NCBI GenBank assembly: GCA_963750125.1
Contig: CAVVPT010000010.1
Span: 16,147 to 80,146, forward strand
Length of the DNA: 64,000 nt
Source of the DNA: an uncultured Chloroflexia bacterium
GTDB lineage: Bacteria; Chloroflexota; Limnocylindria; Limnocylindrales; CSP1-4
Reading direction: 5' to 3'
Shown here: piece after piece, positions 19,258-32,828 of the stretch
Position numbering within the stretch: the first letter of the stretch is position 1
Layout: every line of letters starts with the position of its first letter
Translations under genes and position numbers: made by a program
Notes under the pieces: generated by a model
Seen by the model: the letters and a program-made list of their open reading frames with translations, nothing else
Databases searched by the model: none
Told to the model about the DNA's origin: nothing

Positions 19258-20613
19258 CTAGCGGCGATTGGTCTTCTGCGGTTCGTCCGGAGGCTCGAAG
19301 AGCCAGGTCTCCGGGATCCCCGACTTGCCCAGCGCGCCGAGCTTCGTGCCATTGAGCGTGAACAGCGTCACGCCGGACGAGCCGGTGCGGACCTCGACCG
19401 ACTTCCTGCCCTGGAACGTCAGCGTCTTGCCGTTCTTGTACACGGTCCCGGCCGAACCCACCTTCTTGTCGACCTTACCGTCGACCCAGACCTTGATCCA
19501 CGCGCGCCCGCCCTTGACGCGGACGACGAGGTTCACGCCCTTGTAGGCCACTGTGACGTTGCGCGTCAGCGACGTGGTCTTGCCCGCGTCGCTTGAGGCC
19601 GTGACGGTGAGCGACCACCGGCCGGTCGTCAGCTCATAGGGTGCGCTGAACGTCCCGTCCTCGGCCACGGCAACCTTGACCTGGGCCGGGGTCGGCGTCC
19701 TGGACGGCCCGGTATCGCCCTCGGCGGGGCCTGTGTACTTCGCGTGGACCACGACCTCCTTCGCGTTGGTCGCGGTGCCCTGGACAGGGATTGCGCCGTT
19801 CTCGAACGTGGCCCCGTCGGCGGGCTGGTCGACGCTCAGCGTCGGCGTCTCGATCTCGCGGAACGGGACCGTGATGAAGATGCGCTTCGTCTCGTCCGAG
19901 GTCTTCTGCGTCGTCGGGTCGCGGGCACTGATGTCGAACTGATTGCGGCCGCGGCGGAGGTCGATGTCGGCGATCCATGCGCCACTCGTGTCGGCGGTCA
20001 CGTGCATCGGCTGGTCCCAGCTCGGCGAGACGATCGAGACCGTTGCTCCCGGGATCGACGAGCCACGCAGGACGTACGACGTGGCCGTCTCGTCGACGTC
20101 GACGACTGCGGTAGGTGGCTGCGTGACCGCGATCGTGGGCGGCTCGACGTAGCGCTGGATCTGCATCGCAAGGTAGAACGCGAAGGCGGCCACCGCGACG
20201 GTCATGATCGCGGCCACGATGATGGCCGGCGAGAAGGTCAGGCCCTTGCGAGGAGCGGCGATCGGGCGCGGGACGACAATGACCGGCTCCGTCTCCTTGA
20301 TCTCGCCGCGCTCGCGGCGCCACTGGAGCAGGACGTCATCAGGATCGAGGCCGAGGTACAGCGCGTAGTTGCGCAGGAAGCCCTTGGTGTAGACCGCCCC
20401 GGGCAACTCCTTGTAGTCGCCCCGCTCGAGGGCCGCCAGGTACCGCGCCCGGATCTTGGTGTCGCGTTCGGCGCGGTACAGGTCCACGCCCTTGCGCTCG
20501 CGAGCCGTGAACAGCCGCTCCGGCAGGTTCGGACCGTAATCGGGCGTGGAGCCGCGCGCCGACTCGCTGCGGTCGATGCCGACCGCACGCTTCACCTGGT
20601 CTCGCGTGGTCAT
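19258..20613 (-). CDS. RodZ-like membrane protein: XRE-type HTH, single TM helix, C-terminal DUF4115-like domain
   Basis: N-terminal HTH (LRNYALYLGLDPDDVL). TM segment (AIIVAAIMTVAVAAFAFYLA). Long extracytoplasmic beta-rich C-terminus. ATGA overlap with the ftsK stop. Confidence 0.65.
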   Translation of the reverse strand: MTTRDQVKRAVGIDRSESARGSTPDYGPNLPERLFTARERKGVDLYRAERDTKIRARYLAALERGDYKELPGAVYTKGFLRNYALYLGLDPDDVLLQWRRERGEIKETEPVIVVPRPIAAPRKGLTFSPAIIVAAIMTVAVAAFAFYLAMQIQRYVEPPTIAVTQPPTAVVDVDETATSYVLRGSSIPGATVSIVSPSWDQPMHVTADTSGAWIADIDLRRGRNQFDISARDPTTQKTSDETKRIFITVPFREIETPTLSVDQPADGATFENGAIPVQGTATNAKEVVVHAKYTGPAEGDTGPSRTPTPAQVKVAVAEDGTFSAPYELTTGRWSLTVTASSDAGKTTSLTRNVTVAYKGVNLVVRVKGGRAWIKVWVDGKVDKKVGSAGTVYKNGKTLTFQGRKSVEVRTGSSGVTLFTLNGTKLGALGKSGIPETWLFEPPDEPQKTNRR

Positions 20614-22970
20614 TCGTCTTCCCCGTCATCCCCCGCCCCGGCCGGTGACGGATTGTCCCGCCGGAGCACCGCTCGAGCATTCGACCCGTCGAAGGCGCCG
20701 ATATACCCCCGCGCCTCGAGCTGGTCGATCATCCGCGCTGCGCGAGCATAGCCCACCTTCAACCGTCGCTGTAATAGCGAAGCGGATGCACGATCGTACT
20801 CCCGGATCACCTCGATCGCGTCGGGCAGCAGTCGGTCGGCCTCCTCGTCGTCGGCGTCGCCCGCGCGACCGCTTCCCTCATCGCCGGTCTCGATGATCGA
20901 CAGGTCGTAGTGCGGGTCGTCGATCTGGTCCTTCCAGTGCTCGACGACCTTGGCGATCTCGTGGTCGGACACGAAGACGCCCTGCATGCGGATCGGGCGC
21001 GGCAGGTCGGACGGCTGGTAGAGCATGTCGCCGCGACCGATCAGGTCCTCCGCCCCGGGTGCGTCGAGGATCGTCCGCGAGTCGATCTGCGAGGCCATGG
21101 CAAACGCGATGCGACTCGGGAAGTTGGCCTTGATGAGGCCGGTAACGACGTTGACCGACGGGCGCTGCGTGGCCAGGACCATGTGGATCCCGACCGCGCG
21201 CGCCTTCTGGGCCAGGCGGACGATCGGATCCTCGACATTCTTGCCCTCGCGCATCATCAGGTCGGCCAGCTCGTCGATGACGATGACGATGTACGGCATC
21301 CGGTCGGCCGGGTCGGCGCGCGTCTCGTTGAAGGCGCGGATGTTGCGTGCCGTGGCGCCCGCCAACCGCCGGTAGCGGCCCTCCATCTCGTTCATCGCCC
21401 AGAGCAGCGCCGCCTTGGCCTTCTCGGGCTCGGTGATGACCGGCACGAGCAGGTGCGGCAACCCGTTGTAGGCGGCCAGCTCGACGCGCTTGAGGTCCAT
21501 CAGGATGAGCCGGATCTCAGCCGGCGTGGCCTTGCACAGCAGGCTCGTGATGAGCGCGTTGACCATGACGCTCTTGCCTGACCCGGTGGCGCCGGCGATC
21601 AGCAGGTGGGGCATCCGCGCGAGGTCGACGGCTTGGGCCTTGCCGGCCACGTCGCGGCCCAGGGCGAATGTCAGCTTCGAACCCGTCGCCTCGAAGTCGA
21701 GCTCGTCGAGGATCCGCCGCAGCGCGACGATGTTGAAGTCCTTGTTGGGGATCTCGATGCCGACCGCGCTCTTGCCCGGGATCGGCGCCTCGATGCGCAG
21801 CGAGCGGGCCGCCAGCGCCATGGCCAGGTCGTCGGCGAGCGCCTCGATCCGGCTGACCTTGATGTCCGGCGCCGGCTGGACCTCGTACTGGGTCACGACC
21901 GGGCCGGCGTTGCGGCTGGTGATCTCGGCCGGGATGCCGAAGCCGGCCAGCTTCTTCTTGATGATCTCCTCGTTGTGGCGATGGATCGTCTCTTCCCCGC
22001 TGCCGTTCACGGGCAGCGGGAGGTCATCGAGGATCGCCGTGTCCGGGAGGCGGTACTCGGCCTCGCGCGTCGGGGCCGAGTCGCCGGCCTCGGTGATGTC
22101 GTCAAGCGGGCGCACCGGACGCGGCGCGGTTGCCACGGCGGCCGCACCGGCGGCGCGAGCGGGCGCGAAGGTGGCCGAGGTTGGCGTCGGGCTCGGGATG
22201 GCGACCGGGATGCTGGTCGCCTGATCGCCGTTCTCGCCCCACATGCCAGTCTGGCCGTCTGACGTCCCGCCCGCGACAGCGGCCGCTCCACGCCGGCCCT
22301 TTGCGGGAGCCGTCGCGGCGGCAGCCCCGTTCGGCGATCCGCCGTTCGCGGCGTTGGGCGACTCCCGCTTCATGCTCGCCGCCGTGACCCCGCCCAGCCA
22401 GCGGGCGGTGCCGGTCAGGGGCCGTGCCAGCTCGGCCGGACGCAAGGCAAACGCGATCATGAGGCCGATCACGATCAGGCCCGCGAGCAGGATGAATGCA
22501 CCCGGCCCGGTGACGAGCGGGACGAGGAGCTCTTCGAGGAACCGGCCGATTCGCCCGCCGCCGCGCTCGACCCCCAGGAGCTCGAAGCTGAGGACCTCGA
22601 GGCAGCCGAGGAAGCCGATGAACGCGATGGTCAGACCGATGACCGTTGCGCCCCAGCCGGAGTTGGGCTTTCGACCGGGACCCCATTCGAGGTACCAGCC
22701 GGCGCTGAGCAGCAGGAACGGCAGGAGCCAGCGGCCGGTCTCGAACCACGGCGCGATCGAGTCGCGGTAGCGGTCGGTGAGCTCGCCCTCGCCCGGCAAC
22801 AGCAGCGCGATCAGCGTCACGGCGCCGAGCAACAGGAACGTGATGCCGATGATCGAGCGCGCAATCTCGGGGCTGATCGTGGGCAGGCGTACGGTGGGTA
22901 TCCCGCTGTTGCGGCGTCGTCGCCGCGGGGTCGCCTGCCGGCTGGTCGAGGTGCGCCGTCGGGTCGCCAC
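20610..22970 (-). CDS. ftsK: DNA translocase FtsK
   Basis: N-terminal TM helices and a Pro/Ala linker. Motor domain with Walker A GATGSGKS. C-terminal winged-helix gamma domain. GTG start 2 nt after the rnj stop. Track ORF 20610..24644 is an artefactual fusion. Confidence 0.9.
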   Translation of the reverse strand: MATRRRTSTSRQATPRRRRRNSGIPTVRLPTISPEIARSIIGITFLLLGAVTLIALLLPGEGELTDRYRDSIAPWFETGRWLLPFLLLSAGWYLEWGPGRKPNSGWGATVIGLTIAFIGFLGCLEVLSFELLGVERGGGRIGRFLEELLVPLVTGPGAFILLAGLIVIGLMIAFALRPAELARPLTGTARWLGGVTAASMKRESPNAANGGSPNGAAAATAPAKGRRGAAAVAGGTSDGQTGMWGENGDQATSIPVAIPSPTPTSATFAPARAAGAAAVATAPRPVRPLDDITEAGDSAPTREAEYRLPDTAILDDLPLPVNGSGEETIHRHNEEIIKKKLAGFGIPAEITSRNAGPVVTQYEVQPAPDIKVSRIEALADDLAMALAARSLRIEAPIPGKSAVGIEIPNKDFNIVALRRILDELDFEATGSKLTFALGRDVAGKAQAVDLARMPHLLIAGATGSGKSVMVNALITSLLCKATPAEIRLILMDLKRVELAAYNGLPHLLVPVITEPEKAKAALLWAMNEMEGRYRRLAGATARNIRAFNETRADPADRMPYIVIVIDELADLMMREGKNVEDPIVRLAQKARAVGIHMVLATQRPSVNVVTGLIKANFPSRIAFAMASQIDSRTILDAPGAEDLIGRGDMLYQPSDLPRPIRMQGVFVSDHEIAKVVEHWKDQIDDPHYDLSIIETGDEGSGRAGDADDEEADRLLPDAIEVIREYDRASASLLQRRLKVGYARAARMIDQLEARGYIGAFDGSNARAVLRRDNPSPAGAGDDGEDE

Positions 22971-22972
22971 GG

Positions 22973-24644
22973 TCAGACCTCGACCACGACCGGGAAGACC
23001 ATCGGACGGCGCTTCGTCTGCTCGTACAGGTAGCGCGACAGGCCGTCCTTGATCTGGCTCTTGAGCAGGCCAATCTCGCTGATGTGGTCGCCGGGGTTGT
23101 CGACCGCGGCGAGGACCCGGTCGACCGCCTCCTCCATGAGCGGGTCGCGCTCGTTCAGCGGGACGAAGCCTCGCGTGATGATCTCGGGACGCCCAACCAC
23201 CGAGCCGGTCTGCTTGTCGACCGTGACGACGACCATGAAGATTCCGTCGTTGGCCAACGCGCGCCGGTCGCGCAGCACGACCTCGCCGACCTCGCCGACC
23301 GAGAGGCCGTCGACGAAGACGTACCCCGCCTGGACCGGCGTGCCGCGCCTGGCGCTGCCGTCGGCCGAGATCTCGATCGGCGTGCCGTTCTCGATGATAA
23401 ACACGTTCTCGGGCAGGACCCCGGTCTCGATCGCGAGGCGACCGTGCTGGACCTGCATCCGGAACTCGCCGTGGATCGGGATGAAGTGTTTCGGTTTCGT
23501 CAGCCCCAGCATCAACTTGAGCTCTTCCTGGCTCGCGTGGCCGGAGACATGCGCTCGCTTGATCGTGTGGTAGAAGACGTTGGCGCCGACCTTGAAGAGG
23601 TTGTCGATCGTGCGCGAGACGTATTCCTCGTTGCCGGGGATCGGGCTGGCCGACACGATCACGGTGTCGCCGGGCTGAATCTCGACGAAGCGATGGTCGC
23701 GGTTGGCCATCCGGGCAAGGCCCGCCATCGGTTCGCCCTGGGCGCCCGTCGTGGCGATGACCAGCTTCCCGTCGGGCTGGTCCTTGATGCGGTCCTTCGA
23801 CAGGACCTTGGCCGGGTCGTACGTCAGGTAGCCGAGGTCGGTCGCGATCCGGAAGTTCTGCTCCATCGAACGCCCGATCACGACCGTGCTGCGGTCCATG
23901 TCGGCGGCTGCGTCGAGCACTTGCTGGATGCGCGCGATGTTGCTCGCGAAGGTGGCGACGATGACCCGGCCCTCGAGCGGCTCCATGATCTCGCGGAAGG
24001 CCTCGCCGACGGTGCGCTCCGAGGGCGTGTAGCCGGGGTTCTCGGCACGGGTCGAATTCGGAGAGCAGGCAGACCACGCCTTCTTCGCCGAGCCTGGCGA
24101 GGATCGCGAAGTCGGACAGCTTGCCGTCGACGGGCGTGTGGTCGAACTTGAAGTCGCCCGTGTGGACGACGGTCCCGACTGGCGTGCGGATTGCGACGCC
24201 CATGGCGTCCGGGATCGAATGGCCGACGCGGAATGGAATGATGCGGAACGGCCCGATCTCGACCTCGTCGCCCGGATCGAGCGCAAGCAGCGGGTTGTTG
24301 TGGAGCTTGTGCTCCTTGATCTTGTTGCCGAGCAGGCCACGGGCGAGCGTCGAGGCGTAGATCGGGACGCCCGGGAAGCCGGGCAGGACGTATGGCAGAC
24401 CGCCGACGTGGTCTTCGTGCGCGTGCGTGATCACGAAGGCGCGGACGTCCTCGCGCCGCTCGCGGAGGTAGGTCACATCCGGGATCACGAGGTCGATCCC
24501 GAACATCTCCTCGTCCGGGAACATCAGTCCGCAGTCGACGACGACGATGTCGGAGCCGTACTCGAAGATGTACATGTTCTTGCCGATCTCCCCCACCCCG
24601 CCGAGCGGGATGATGCGGAGCGGCGTATCAGGTGTATCTGGCAT
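22973..24644 (-). CDS. rnj: Ribonuclease J (beta-CASP metallo-beta-lactamase RNase); frame interrupted by a 1-nt insertion at ~24054-24059
   Basis: N-terminus MPDTPDTPLRIIPLGGVGEIGKN...HAHEDHVGG lies in one frame. The C-terminal part from STRAENPGYTPSERTV onward lies in the frame ending at 22973. The conserved motif L-L-S-E-S-T-N/R-A-E is split exactly at gaaTTcgac (a GAATTC site); deleting one T restores ..VVCLLSESTRAENPGY.. Confidence 0.9.
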
Positions 24645-26759: not shown

Positions 26760-29342
26760 TCAGACCGGTTCCTTGGCCAGGTGGCGCTGCATCGCTGCCT
26801 TGCGCGAGAGGTTGACGCGACCCTGCCGGTCGATCTCGGTCACGACCACCATCACCTCGTCGCCGACGGACACGACGTCCTCGACGGTCGGCACGTGGTA
26901 GTCGGCGAGCTCGCCGATCCGGACGAGGCCTTCCTTGCCCGGCAGGATCTCGACGAACGCGCCGAAGCCCATGATCCGGGTGACCTTGCCGAGGTACAGC
27001 GAGCCGACTTCGACCTCGCGCGTCAGGGACTCGATCCACTGGATCGCCTTTCGCGAGTTCTCGCCGGAAACGGCCGCGATCTCGACCGTGCCGTCGTCCT
27101 CGACGTTGATCTCGGTCTGGGTCTCCTCCTGGATCTTGCGGATCATTGAGCCACCCTTGCCGATGATCTCGCGAATCTTCTCGGGGTTGATCTTGATCGT
27201 GATGATGCGCGGAGCGAACTCGCTCATCTCGGTGCGTGCCGTCGGCAGCGTCTCGGTCATCTTGTCGAGGATCGTGAGGCGCGCCTCGCGGGCCTGGGCG
27301 AGGCCATCACGGATGATCGCCTCGCTGATGCCACGGACCTTGATGTCCATCTGCAGGGCGGTCACGCCGTCCCGCGTCCCGGTCACCTTGAAGTCCATGT
27401 CGCCGATCGAGTCCTCCTTGCCGAGGATGTCGGTGAGGACGACGAACCGGCCGTCGGGCTCGCTGATCAGGCCCATCGCCGCGCCGGCGACCGGAGCCTT
27501 GATCGGCACGCCTGCGTCCATCAACGCGAGCGTTGATCCGCAGGTCGACGCCATCGATGTCGAGCCGTTGGAGGTCACGCACTCCGACACGAGCCGGATG
27601 ACGTACGGGAACTCCTCCTGGCTCGGCAGGACGGGCACGAGCGCCCGCTCGGCGAGATGGCCGTGACCGATGTCACGCCGACTGGGACCACGCATCATCT
27701 TGTTCTCGCCGGTGCTGTACGGCGGGAAGTTGTAGTGATGGAGGTAGCGCTTCTCGGTCTCCGGGCTGATGGTGTCGATGCGCTGGACGTCCGAGGACGC
27801 GCCGAGCGTGGCGACGGTCAGCGCCTGCGTCTCACCACGGGTGAACAGGCCGGAGCCGTGTGCGCGCGGGATCAGCCCGACCTCGACCGAGATCGGCCGG
27901 ATGTCGGTCAGCCCCCGCCCGTCGATCCGGATCCCCTCGTCGAGGACGAGCCGGCGCACGGTCTTTTTCTGGATGAGGCTGAACAGGCCCTTGCTGACGC
28001 GGGCGTTACGGCGCGCCTGCTCGAGGAGCGCGTTGGTGTCGCCCCCGGTCCGGTTGGCGCGGACGGCCTCGGCGATGCTCTCGCGCAGCGCGGAGACACG
28101 GCCCGGCAGGTCATTCGCGAACCACAGCAGCAGGTTGGCGGTCGCCTCGGCATCGGGCAGGGCCCGATGGCTCTGGGTCAGGTCGATGCCAAAGAAGTTC
28201 GACAGCGTCGGCAGCTTGTAGTTCTCAAGATCCGGGTAGCCCTCGCGGGCAATCACCAGGGTGTCGAGATAGCGACCCGGTTCGATCTTGGTGCCATCGC
28301 CGAGTGCAGCCTCGATGAAGGCGATGTCGAACCCGACGCTGTGGCCGACGATCATCGCGTCGCCGGCGAAGTCGAGCGCCTTGCGGGCCGCCTCGGCGGG
28401 CGACGGGGCGCCGCGGATGTCGTCATTGGTGATGCCGTGCATCTGGTTGCCGACGATCGGACGCCCCGGATCGACGAAGGTCGACCAACGGTCGACGATC
28501 GCGTTCCCCTTGACCTTGACCGCGGCGATCTCGACGAGGTCGGCCATCTTCGGGTCCGTGCCGGTCGTCTCGACGTCGATGACGACGAGCTCGCGCTCGG
28601 CATCGGTGGCAGCCGCGAAGTCGAGCACCGACTCGATCGGCGGCTCGAGGTACGGGATCCGCTTGGCCTTCCCGACCGCCTTCTGGAGCTCCTCCTGCAG
28701 GTCGATGAGCGGCTGGAGCGAACGGTGGCCGAAGAGGATGGCTTCCGCCATGACCGCCTCGGGCAGCAGCTTCGCGCCGGCCTCGACCATCATGATCGCG
28801 TCACGCGTGCCGGCGACGATCAGGTCGAGCTCCGAGTCGGCAAGCTCAGTGTGCGTCGGGTTGACGACGAACTGGCCGTCGATCCGTCCGACGCGGACAG
28901 AGGCAATCGGGCCGAGGAACGGGATCTCGCTGATCGTCAGCGCAGCCGATGCGGCGAGGGTACCGACGACGTCGGGGTTGTTCTCCTGGTCCGTCGAGAG
29001 GACCGTGATGACGAGCTGGATGTCGTCCTTGTAGCCCGTCGGGAAGAGCGGCCGGATGGGCCGGTCGGTCTGGCGAGCGGCGAGGATCGCGTGCTCGGAC
29101 GGGCGCGCCTCGCGCTTGATGAAGCCGCCGGGGATCTTGCCGGCTGCATACATCCGCTCCTCGAAGTCGACCGTGAGCGGAAAGAAGTCGAGGCCGGGGC
29201 GCGGCTCCGACCGGTTGGCGGTGCCGAGCACCATAGTGTCGCCGTAGCGGACAGTGACCGAACCGCCGGCGAGGCGGGCGAGCTTGCCGGTCTCGATGGT
29301 CAGCGTGCGACCACCGAACTCGGTCTCGAAAATCTGGGACAA
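26760..29342 (-). CDS. pnp: Polyribonucleotide nucleotidyltransferase (PNPase) with an inserted DEDDh-type 3'-5' exonuclease domain
   Basis: RNase PH 1 and 2 (..[14 protein letters not shown].., ..[22 protein letters not shown]..), KH ([12 protein letters not shown]) and S1 domains all present. The protein is 860 aa instead of ~700-750. Residues ~248-433 carry Exo[10 protein letters not shown], Exo[11 protein letters not shown] and Exo[14 protein letters not shown] motifs. Confidence 0.9.
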
Positions 29343-29422
29343 GGGAACCGTTCCTCCTTGTCGCGGAGGAGGGCCCGACCTATGAGCGGATGAGCCGGTT
29401 TCGCCGGTGACGCGTGATGCGA

Positions 29423-29449
29423 GAAACCCCGGGAACGACCCGGGGTTCG
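29423..29449 (-). terminator. GC-rich hairpin between rpsO and pnp (attenuator / partial terminator candidate)
   Basis: CCCCGGG-ucguu-CCCGGGG followed by UUUCUC on the minus strand. This is the same position as the E. coli rpsO-pnp intercistronic hairpin. Confidence 0.4.
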
Positions 29450-29461
29450 CAGTGACGGCGC

Positions 29462-29746
29462 CTAGCGGCGGAGTCCGAGCCGTCCGATGACGACTCGATA
29501 GCGCGCGCTGTCCTTCTTCATCAGGTATGCGAGAAGGCGGCGGCGCTGGCCCACGAGCTTGAGGAGGCCGCGGCGCGAATGGTTGTCCTTCGGGAAGCTC
29601 CGGAGATGCCCGGTCAGTTGCTTGATCCGCTCCGTCAGGAGCGCGATCTGGACCTCCGGGGAACCGGTGTCACCTTCCTTGGTGGCATACCCGGTAATGA
29701 TCTCCTGCTTCTCTTCCCGCGCGAGCGGCACTCGGTCCTCCGACAC
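29462..29746 (-). CDS. rpsO: 30S ribosomal protein S15
   Basis: ..[64 protein letters not shown].. S15 signature. Confidence 0.9.
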
Positions 29747-30070: not shown

Positions 30071-30853
30071 TCAGCCGACCTCCGCCGGCCCGTGAAGGAC
30101 GACTCGCAGCGGCGTCCCCAGACCCGTGCGGTCAACGGCGGGTCGAATGCTTGCCCTTCCGTCGTCTCCGACTTCGAGTTCGACATCCCGGCCATCGGTT
30201 GAGGCCAGGTAGGTGCCGGCCGGCGGCAGCGCGATCGGCAACTCGAACTCCACGGTCGTGCCGCCATCGTTCGACCGCGCCGTCCCGGTCACGGTTACCT
30301 CACGTCCGAGCAGCTCGCGCGCCGTGGCCAGGTCGCCGGCCGCTATCGCGCTCCGGATGTCGCTGCTGCGAACCGGCCGCCCGTCGAGCGTGAACGGCGC
30401 GATCACCACGACGTCGAACCCGTCACGCCGTCCGAGCTCGGCGACCGTCTCCGGCGTGCCGCGGCGCTCGAACCCAAAGGCGGCATCGGGGGTCATGAGG
30501 AAGCCCGCGAGGTCAACGCGCGAGCTGATTGCCCCGACGAATGCGTCGTACGGCGTGCGGCGCACCGCCTCATCGAAATGCTGGACGACGGTGACGGCAA
30601 CGCCGGCTGCCTCGAGGAGGTCCAGGCGTTCGGCCGGATGGAGCAGGAGCGACGGCGCAGAGCCGCGGATGATCTCGTCAGGATGGTGGTCGAAGGTGAT
30701 CACCGCGGGGCGAGCGTCGCGCTTGGAAGCCTCGCTCGAGAGGTGCTCCAGCAGGTAGGCGTGCCCGCGGTGGATCCCGTCGAACACGCCGATGACCACG
30801 AACAGCCGGCCGTGGCCGGCGTTGAGCGCCTCGACCCCCTCGACGACGTCCAT
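30071..30853 (-). CDS. ribF: FAD synthetase (FMN adenylyltransferase) RibF-like, 260 aa, with a short degenerate C-terminal riboflavin-kinase-like region
   Basis: N-terminal VIGVFDGIHRGHAYLL nucleotidyltransferase motif. The C-terminal ~75 aa lack the kinase PTAN / GxY / E motifs. TGATG overlap with the truB stop. Confidence 0.7.
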   Translation of the reverse strand: MDVVEGVEALNAGHGRLFVVIGVFDGIHRGHAYLLEHLSSEASKRDARPAVITFDHHPDEIIRGSAPSLLLHPAERLDLLEAAGVAVTVVQHFDEAVRRTPYDAFVGAISSRVDLAGFLMTPDAAFGFERRGTPETVAELGRRDGFDVVVIAPFTLDGRPVRSSDIRSAIAAGDLATARELLGREVTVTGTARSNDGGTTVEFELPIALPPAGTYLASTDGRDVELEVGDDGRASIRPAVDRTGLGTPLRVVLHGPAEVG

Positions 30854-31805: not shown

Positions 31806-32828
31806 TCAGCGCGAGACGGCGGCGGCCAGGCGGGCCGCCTCGGCGAGCACGACCGGGCGTGCCTCGTCCGGAGGGAGCTCGATCGTCGCACCGGCGGCCC
31901 TTGCGTGGCCGCCGCCCCCGAAGCGTCCCGTGAGGACCGTCGCATCGACCCCGCCCGGCTTCGTCCGAACGCTCAGCCTAGTCCCGGCCGAAGCCTCCTT
32001 GAAGAGGATCGCTACCTCCGCGGTCTCCGCCTGGGCGAGCAGGTCGATGATCCCTTCGGAGTCGGACGGGACGGTGCCCGTGTCCGCGAGGTCGGCGTCC
32101 GCCAGCATGGACCACACGATCCGCCCGTCCTCGCTCGTGGCCAGCCGGTCGAGCACGCGGCCGAACAGCTTGAGCTGCCGTTCCGGCTTGGAGCGGTAGA
32201 GGCGGCGAGAAATGTCGGACAGCGGCGCGCCCGCCTCGACGAGCGCCGCCGAAACGACCAGCGTTCGCGGAGTCGCGTTCGGATGGGCGAACGTGGCCGT
32301 GTCCATGACGATGCCGGCCATGAGCGCGGCTGCCAGCGACCCGTCGCCGGTATCGAGCGGAATGCCGAGGCGAGCGGCGAGCAGCGTTGCCATCTCGCAA
32401 GTGGCGGCGGCTGCCGGATCGACCCAGTCGGCGGGCCGGCGTTCGTCGTCGTTCGACGCGTGGTGGTCGATGACGACCCGCGGCAGCCGATCGAAGAGCT
32501 CGGCATGCCGCTCGCGCACAGCGCCCACCCGATCGAGCGTGCCGCAGTCAGAGATCACGAGCAGGTCGTAATCTACGTCGGGCTCGGGGTCCGTGCGGAA
32601 CCGCTCGATTCCCGCCAGGAAGCCGTACAGCTCGGGAACAGGGTCCGTGCAGACAGGGTCGGCGCGGCCGCCACACGCCTCCACGATCGCGGTCACGGCG
32701 AGGGTCGCGCCGAGCGTGTCTGCATCCGGGTTCTCATGCCCGACGGCCAGCACCCGTCGCGCCTCTCGCAGGCGCTCAACGACCGGGCTCGGAACCACCT
32801 CGAGGTATGCGCCGAGGTCGACGCTCAT
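31806..32828 (-). CDS. nrnA: DHH/DHHA1 phosphoesterase NrnA (oligoribonuclease / pAp phosphatase)
   Basis: HENPDADTLG, DCGTLDR and VIDHH DHH-family motifs. C-terminal GGGH (DHHA1). Confidence 0.8.
   Translation of the reverse strand: MSVDLGAYLEVVPSPVVERLREARRVLAVGHENPDADTLGATLAVTAIVEACGGRADPVCTDPVPELYGFLAGIERFRTDPEPDVDYDLLVISDCGTLDRVGAVRERHAELFDRLPRVVIDHHASNDDERRPADWVDPAAAATCEMATLLAARLGIPLDTGDGSLAAALMAGIVMDTATFAHPNATPRTLVVSAALVEAGAPLSDISRRLYRSKPERQLKLFGRVLDRLATSEDGRIVWSMLADADLADTGTVPSDSEGIIDLLAQAETAEVAILFKEASAGTRLSVRTKPGGVDATVLTGRFGGGGHARAAGATIELPPDEARPVVLAEAARLAAAVSR

Follow-up and report, generated by a model that had tools for sequence, protein, structure and literature searches.

A DEDDh exonuclease domain inserted in the helical linker of polynucleotide phosphorylase in Limnocylindrales

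Polynucleotide phosphorylase (PNPase) is among the best-studied enzymes of RNA decay, and the helical linker joining its two RNase PH-like (PH) cores is small and without a catalytic centre in every solved structure that we retrieved. How is a PNPase to be understood whose linker appears to carry a second enzyme? This question is raised by a pnp gene in a stretch of 64,000 nucleotides (nt; the window) from contig CAVVPT010000010.1 of assembly GCA_963750125.1, which belongs to an uncultured member of the Limnocylindrales (Chloroflexota). A preliminary description of this DNA had pointed to a block of about 185 amino acids (aa), at residues 248-433 of the 860-aa product, with the three Exo motifs of the DnaQ-like exonucleases. 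From sequence searches, structure prediction and the comparison of related genomes, we propose that an old insertion of an epsilon/PolC-type domain may have turned a housekeeping PNPase into a two-site enzyme with a finishing role, a reading to which we give a probability of roughly 0.55.

The inserted domain and its place in the protein

The gene at 26760-29342 (minus strand) encodes the housekeeping PNPase, the ortholog that follows rpsO in this Limnocylindrales genome. The protein matched the PNPase equivalog TIGR03591 with 956.8 bits (cut-off 525) in two segments, one on each side of the insert, and Pfam matched RNase_PH and RNase_PH_C twice each, as well as KH_1 and S1. Both cores, KH, S1 and the phosphorolytic site are intact, in agreement with what the preliminary description had said of these domains. 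The first PH core aligns with residues 18-239 of the Staphylococcus epidermidis PNPase 5yjj, and the phosphorolytic residues of the second core correspond to D486, D492 and K494 of Escherichia coli. A homotrimeric ring and phosphate-dependent 3'-5' degradation, which are traits of the PNPase family, are predicted for the 860-aa protein. The exact PNPase of the window was also found in public collections, on a 287-kb contig.

The canonical PNPases of S. epidermidis (5yjj), E. coli (3gcm/7ogk) and Caulobacter crescentus (4am3) have the same order of PH1, linker, PH2, KH and S1, with 38-41% identity in the structural alignment and E=4e-218 by phmmer, and share with the Limnocylindrales protein the catalytic motif and the rpsO-pnp pair. 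In contrast, the chains listed are too short to hold the insert (546-784 aa by sequence; at most 730 modelled residues in the best 50 Foldseek matches). The Foldseek search with the full-length model returned ordinary PNPases only among the best 50 matches.

The insert itself was matched by RNase_T (PF00929), the family that had been expected for it, at aa 253-405 with E=2.3e-26 and 93.7 bits (Pfam cut-off 24). When the insert alone was compared with NCBIfam, the DEDD exonuclease model NF005906 gave E=2.5e-41, and a sequence search of the PDB gave E=3.5e-25 for the PolC exonuclease domain; with such values, the DEDD identity of the insert is far beyond chance. The match to the 'dnaq' model TIGR00573 was marginal, with 74.6 bits for the insert alone against a cut-off of 71.5, and 70.6 bits for the whole protein. 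The three Exo motifs of the preliminary description translate exactly at the positions in Table 1, and motifs I, II and III run in DEDDh order (D256, E258, D339, H392, D397). The RNase H-like alpha/beta fold of the superfamily was likewise obtained by structure prediction. Residues 232-472, modelled alone as a 241-aa construct, reached a predicted local distance difference test (pLDDT) score of 93.8, and the model superposed on the PolC exonuclease 9qrn with a root-mean-square deviation of 2.0 Å over 163 columns (Foldseek). The Foldseek probability was 1.00 against the PolC exonuclease, DinG, epsilon and RNase T. In the full-length AlphaFold model, the mean pLDDT was 70.7, with 85-96 across the insert. 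The insert holds a complete DEDDh site, and a metal-dependent hydrolytic 3'-5' exonuclease activity is predicted as most likely for it. The domain spans aa ~250-412 and accounts for most of the block first outlined, whereas residues 413-433 at its end already belong to a linker helix.

Between the PH1 and PH2 anchors, the spacer has 249 aa here, whereas almost all of 125 other representatives have 80-120 aa, as do the canonical enzymes; the net gain over PNPases without the insert is about 155-160 aa. The PF03726 helical domain is split by the insert, so that its profile positions 48-80 alone match, at aa 444-476, with 25.1 bits against a cut-off of 24.6. Linker helices flank the exonuclease on both sides according to Pfam, the alignment and the AlphaFold model, which bears out the earlier view of an in-frame insertion rather than an end-to-end fusion. 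In the predicted structure, the exonuclease follows the second linker helix and precedes the third, and the ExoIII helix is continuous with the linker in a single helix of 39 residues (394-432). The exonuclease is probably mounted rigidly in the linker, since its last helix runs unbroken into it. In the torus of E. coli PNPase, S1/KH and the helical domain occupy opposite faces. The helical domain helps to form a pore that gives the active site a second access, which is thought to serve the traffic of nucleoside diphosphates (NDPs) and phosphate and not the entry of RNA (PMC2723993). By analogy, the exonuclease most likely lies next to the pore that leads to the PNPase active site, on the side of the ring away from S1/KH. 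At the same place in the linker, six other representatives have expansions of 55-130 aa that consist of helical repeats or low-complexity sequence and contain no enzyme; the helical linker of PNPase seems to be a hot spot of length variation.

The preliminary description had offered an Orn-like nanoRNase as one hypothesis. Sequence and fold place it instead with PolC, DinG and epsilon, and no Orn or REXO2 was among the matches listed. The top NCBIfam models for the insert were NF005906, PolC and DinG, and no Orn family was among the best 25 of 67 matches of the whole protein or the best 25 of 30 matches of the insert. The PolC exonuclease (35% identity, 92 bits) and DinG ranked first in the phmmer search of the PDB. 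Foldseek ordered the relatives as PolC exonuclease, DinG, CRISPR-associated DnaQ (Cas2-DEDDh), epsilon, RNase T and ExoX. RNase T, like Orn/REXO2, has the superfamily (DEDDh) and the motif order in common with the insert, but its similarity by sequence is weak (25 bits, E~1e-4) and falls short of the family level; by structure (E~1e-9) it is a neighbour at the level of the superfamily. We conclude from sequence and predicted fold that the insert belongs to the proofreading-type exonucleases of the epsilon/PolC/DinG group, not to Orn or RNase T.

The closest relative of the insert by both sequence and fold is the exonuclease domain of PolC (9qpc/9qrn, 2p1j), where an epsilon-like DEDDh domain is likewise inserted inside a larger nucleotidyl-transferring enzyme. 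The host in that case is a DNA polymerase without a PH ring, and the substrate is the DNA primer terminus. The N-terminal exonucleases of DinG (Staphylococcus aureus 8zef; Bacillus subtilis) are the second-best relatives and also represent an epsilon-like domain fused to another nucleic-acid enzyme. Unlike the internal insertion in PNPase, the domain of DinG is a terminal fusion to a helicase with a role in replication stress. A paralog of the insert was not found elsewhere within the window.

Distribution, conservation and descent

The same insertion was found in the PNPases of at least 293 species-level genomes (one genome per species) when the insert with both junctions was used as the query. 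Among the best 80 of these 293, the identity was 71-98%, and 79 covered all 255 query residues, the remaining one covering 3-255. Many of the loci with this architecture lie on contigs of 1-2.9 Mb. A first protein search gave at least 120 protein clusters of 859-878 aa with 87-97% identity, all with PF00929 and the PNPase domains. In total, well over 200 clusters from independent JGI, ENA and NCBI assemblies have the architecture, and the 858-878-aa form of the protein is present in hundreds of independent assemblies. Named examples in the databases are HEU5204636.1, HSL33792.1 and MFZ9698539.1.

When 1.84 billion representatives of clusters at 50% identity were searched, one full-length protein among the best 150 carried the insert, P0121 (864 aa, 68% identity) from a Candidatus Limnocylindrus clade; the other carriers were fragments belonging to its family. 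P0126 (741 aa) ranks next among the PNPases. It lacks the insert and is likewise situated downstream of rpsO, and its relatives, a sister clade without the insert, are labelled just 'Candidatus Limnocylindria bacterium'. The proteins with the insert are mostly labelled 'Candidatus Limnocylindrales', one 'Ca. Limnocylindrus' and a few just 'Chloroflexota'. On these labels, which are those of the submitters, the insertion characterizes the Limnocylindrales, one order of the class Limnocylindria. The same insert was absent from the other PNPase lineages among the best 150 representatives, down to about 43% identity. Ten of these representatives were scanned against Pfam (P0121, those matching in three to four stretches and five of the longest), and six with expanded linkers were inspected by eye; apart from P0121, the long PNPases covered in this way showed no RNase_T; they had additional copies of S1 or KH, or linkers expanded by helical or low-complexity sequence.

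PNPases of other lineages with linker expansions of 55-130 aa or with extra domains were P0149, P0143, P0167, P0228, P0189, P0241, P0133 and P0136. Three S1 matches were seen in P0133 and P0136 and two to three KH matches in P0149 and P0189, while the linker insert of P0228 consists of Cys-rich CxC repeats.

This distribution also bears on whether the architecture could have arisen from a chimeric assembly or a mis-joined open reading frame (ORF) in GC-rich DNA, which we regard as extremely improbable. Long spurious ORFs do occur in the window, such as one of 1344 aa that seems to join a metallo-beta-lactamase to FtsK, and the neighbouring RNase J gene looks frameshifted. However, the pnp product recurs in hundreds of independent assemblies, including the contigs of 1-2.9 Mb, and coding-frame statistics and selection are consistent across both junctions. 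A chimeric assembly, about which the preliminary description had been cautious, is ruled out by the identical architecture in at least 293 species genomes and more than 200 clusters.

All five DEDDh residues are invariant in 66 species-level genes, and in 47 sequences down to 67% identity they are invariant together with D644, D650 and K652 of the PNPase site. Across the 66 genes, the ratio of non-synonymous to synonymous substitution rates was 0.14 in the PH cores, about 0.30 in the insert, which is under purifying selection, and 0.34-0.55 in the helices of the linker. The pairwise divergence of the insert followed that of the core (r=0.83), and the junctions of the insert showed almost no insertions or deletions. 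Co-divergence with the core and purifying selection together indicate a single old insertion that was retained. The data fit one ancient insertion followed by vertical descent, in which both active sites would have been kept functional. A recent horizontal transfer of the insert is ruled out by its co-divergence with the core and by a GC content that shows no anomaly at the insert. As a molecular synapomorphy, the insertion clearly marks a group of bacteria from soil and freshwater that is abundant and uncultured.

In the literature searched, which included a recent genomics paper on Limnocylindria, a PNPase that contains an inserted exonuclease was nowhere mentioned. In the databases, PF00929 is precomputed on the proteins with the insert. 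They are named 'polyribonucleotide nucleotidyltransferase' or, in many JGI entries, 'DNA polymerase III epsilon subunit family exonuclease', and fragments are named 'exonuclease domain-containing protein'. The view that the architecture was undescribed holds with respect to papers, but the architecture is widespread in one lineage and had already been annotated by machine. As far as the literature searched shows, the domain has been detected automatically and never interpreted.

Possible roles of the second site

According to the proposed finishing role, an epsilon/PolC-type DEDDh domain would have entered the helical linker between the PH cores once, in the ancestor of the Limnocylindrales. 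The trimer would bear three Mg2+-dependent hydrolytic 3'-5' exonuclease modules, presumably on the face away from the RNA entry at S1/KH and by the side pore over the phosphorolytic site. Single-stranded 3' ends could then be shortened in two ways, by phosphorolysis to NDPs or by phosphate-free hydrolysis to nucleoside monophosphates. With regard to the substrate of the insert, we can only infer candidates, namely short RNA leftovers, blocked RNA ends or single-stranded DNA (ssDNA). We favour the clearing of short oligonucleotides that PNPase releases, or of 3' ends at which phosphorolysis stalls, because there is a precedent in mitochondria: PNPase-SUV3 leaves tetranucleotides that are cleared by the DEDDh enzyme REXO2, and an excess of nanoRNA inhibits the degradosome and PNPase-dependent decay (PMC7261184). 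A finishing role of this kind would relieve product inhibition where it arises, just as mitochondrial PNPase is relieved by free REXO2. The degradosome of Caulobacter also contains PNPase together with RNase D, a DEDD enzyme, and the ring of the exosome carries Rrp6 (PMC4245959). These systems (exosome-Rrp6, C. crescentus PNPase-RNase D and mitochondrial PNPase-SUV3-REXO2) resemble the Limnocylindrales protein in combining a ring of the phosphorolytic type with a DEDD 3'-5' exonuclease (PMC4245959, PMC7261184). Their partners are separate polypeptides of the DEDDy type (RNase D, Rrp6) or the Orn subfamily, whereas the exonuclease here is covalently joined and is a DEDDh domain of the epsilon subfamily.

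Several observations weigh against the finishing role. No Orn/REXO2 chain matched the insert at E<=1e-3 in the phmmer search of the PDB, and none was among its best 50 Foldseek matches. The hallmarks of Orn are a leucine wedge and a 5'-phosphate cap that restrict its site to dinucleotides (PMC9779919). The enzymes closest to the insert act on DNA (the PolC proofreading domain, epsilon and Cas2-DEDDh), and one of them, DinG of B. subtilis, favours ssDNA over single-stranded RNA, cutting free single-stranded RNA solely with Mn2+ (PMC12525004); DNA could therefore be the substrate. The cell may already possess a nanoRNase, since the gene cluster includes an NrnA-like DHH/DHHA1 gene. In E. coli PNPase, the pore of the helical domain was considered by those who solved the structure to be an unlikely conduit for RNA substrates (PMC2723993). 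Furthermore, our full-length model is of moderate confidence, with low pLDDT in parts of PH1, KH and S1.

Kinship with DNA enzymes could also mean that the fusion is a factor for the resection or repair of ssDNA 3' ends, or for the clearing of R-loops, that makes use of the nucleic-acid binding of PNPase. The PNPases of Bacillus and mycobacteria are implicated in DNA repair, and the best profile and structural relatives of the insert are DNA enzymes, with PRK07883-type DEDD exonucleases and ExoX besides PolC, DinG, epsilon and Cas2-DEDDh. In addition to ssDNA, B. subtilis DinG degrades the RNA in RNA-DNA hybrids (PMC12525004). We nevertheless consider a role on DNA unlikely: the gene is the housekeeping pnp linked to rpsO, the RNA-binding domains of its product, KH and S1, are intact, no DNA-repair genes are among its neighbours, and the sugar specificity of DEDDh enzymes is not predictable from family membership. 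On the RNA side, the insert might act before PNPase rather than after it, in the manner of RNase T or Rrp6, on structured RNAs such as rRNA and tRNA precursors or terminator hairpins. It would nibble short 3' overhangs by stems or remove tails, and so give a usable end for phosphorolysis or mature stable RNAs. We rate this as rather unlikely. RNase T chains are clear structural neighbours of the insert, but their similarity by sequence is far below that of the PolC exonuclease (25 against 92 bits). RNase T and Orn function as homodimers, an arrangement that is hard to fit to a three-fold ring. A precedent is that Caulobacter RNase D and exosome Rrp6 have been proposed to act on small structured RNAs beside the PH ring (PMC4245959), although the position of the present domain opposite the S1/KH entry face leaves a direct hand-off into the channel not obvious. 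Finally, the domain might be non-catalytic, with a structural or regulatory function as a lid over the pore for NDP and phosphate, or it might offer a docking platform. A modulating influence of the helical domain on the access of NDP and phosphate to the active site has been suggested (PMC2723993), and other PNPases tolerate the non-catalytic expansions mentioned above. The invariance throughout the lineage of the five metal- and water-activating residues and of the surrounding epsilon-family motifs would be unexpected for a scaffold and makes a silent domain very unlikely.

With a second conserved catalytic centre in the linker throughout the lineage, this would be the first PNPase that joins phosphorolysis and hydrolysis in one chain. 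The protein offers a natural experiment on the exit of 3' ends and nanoRNA products from the PH ring, a bacterial parallel to the cooperation of the exosome with Rrp6/Rrp44 and of PNPase with REXO2, and a candidate enzyme for the full breakdown of RNA to mononucleotides. A further, doubtful step is to regard it as a one-chain bacterial counterpart of the exosome, in which the 3' end or the leftovers would be routed either to the PH ring or to the hydrolase opposite the RNA entry. RNA would then be degraded completely whatever the phosphate/NDP balance of the cell, which might be of importance in the freshwater and soil habitats of the lineage, where phosphorus is scarce.

Gene features and neighbourhood

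The positions of pnp, of the parts of its product and of the neighbouring features are given in Table 1.

Table 1. Features of the pnp locus, with positions in the window
Feature	Residues	Position (nt)	Strand	Basis
pnp coding sequence, PNPase with inserted DEDDh domain	860 aa	26760..29342	-	ORF list; TIGR03591
First RNase PH-like core (RNase_PH + RNase_PH_C)	~12-207	28722..29309	-	Pfam
Helical linker domain, N-terminal part	208-249 (helices 210-223, 237-247)	28596..28721	-	AlphaFold2 secondary structure; alignment to insert-free PNPases
Inserted DnaQ-like DEDDh 3'-5' exonuclease domain	250-412	28107..28595	-	PF00929, NCBIfam, predicted structure
ExoI motif, VVIDVETTG	D256, E258	28560..28586	-	translation
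ExoII motif	D339	28317..28352	-	translation
ExoIII motif, H-x4-D (DEDDh type)	H392, D397	28137..28169	-	translation
Helical linker domain, C-terminal part	413-476 (predicted helices to 432, 436-447, 451-469)	27915..28106	-	PF03726; predicted helices
Second RNase PH-like core with phosphorolytic site	~481-690	27273..27902	-	Pfam
Phosphorolytic-site motif in PH2	D644, D650, K652	27387-27431	-	translation
KH domain	714-771	27030..27203	-	Pfam KH_1, E=6.2e-11
S1 domain	777-848	26799..27014	-	Pfam S1, E=3.1e-17
rpsO (ribosomal protein S15), directly upstream of pnp; canonical rpsO-pnp pair		29462..29746	-	Pfam Ribosomal_S15, E=6.9e-35
pnp leader hairpin, UCCUCC pairing with GGAGGA Shine-Dalgarno, within rpsO-pnp spacer 29343-29461		29352..29370	-	minimum free energy folds
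DHH/DHHA1 protein gene, between rbfA and truB		31806-32828	-	both domains found

The pnp ORF starts with TTG in the translation of the window, with the Shine-Dalgarno sequence AAGGAGGA 8-9 nt upstream of the start codon. The aligned start was TTG or GTG in the first 15 of 65 related genomes. The Shine-Dalgarno sequence was paired in the minimum free energy fold of 33 of the 35 distinct pnp leaders from related genomes, and a CUCUGC/GCAGAG variant leader retains the pairing of the hairpin. This hairpin was visible in the folds of single sequences; RNAalifold on the pnp leaders missed it, the variants pairing in a shifted register. The leader hairpin may be an element of translational (auto)regulation. 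Straight after the rpsO stop codon, at 29422-29446 on the minus strand, a GC-rich stem-loop is followed by a U run (ACCCCGGG-TCGTT-CCCGGGGTTTCT), which looks like an rpsO terminator or an attenuator ahead of pnp.

The gene cluster reads nusA-infB-rbfA-DHH-truB-ribF-rpsO-pnp. A DHH/DHHA1 gene is indeed present where the preliminary description had placed a DHH nanoRNase, nrnA, 2.5 kb from pnp, but the name nrnA is not secure, because the protein scored just 82.8 bits against the cut-off of 350 of the NrnA equivalog NF053633. In the ribF-like ORF of 260 aa (30071-30853, minus strand), the FAD synthetase domain alone was matched at E<=1e-5, and a riboflavin kinase domain was not reported at this threshold.

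Gene calling based on GC content at third codon positions was too unspecific in the DNA of the window, which has 68% GC. The 1344-aa metallo-beta-lactamase-FtsK ORF (20610-24644, minus strand) was rejected as a fusion and is a read-through artefact of stop-poor, GC-rich DNA. Its codon-position GC shows a change of frame after aa ~195, which belong to the N-terminus of RNase J, and from the reading of the translation FtsK proper begins near aa 560-600. The RNase J gene (~22973-24644, minus strand) is split over two frames, with the frameshift at GAATTC 24054-24059. Dropping one T there gives a protein of 556 aa that matches the RNase J model TIGR00649 end to end with 593 bits (cut-off 400), and the break in frame reflects a sequencing indel or else a genuine frameshift.

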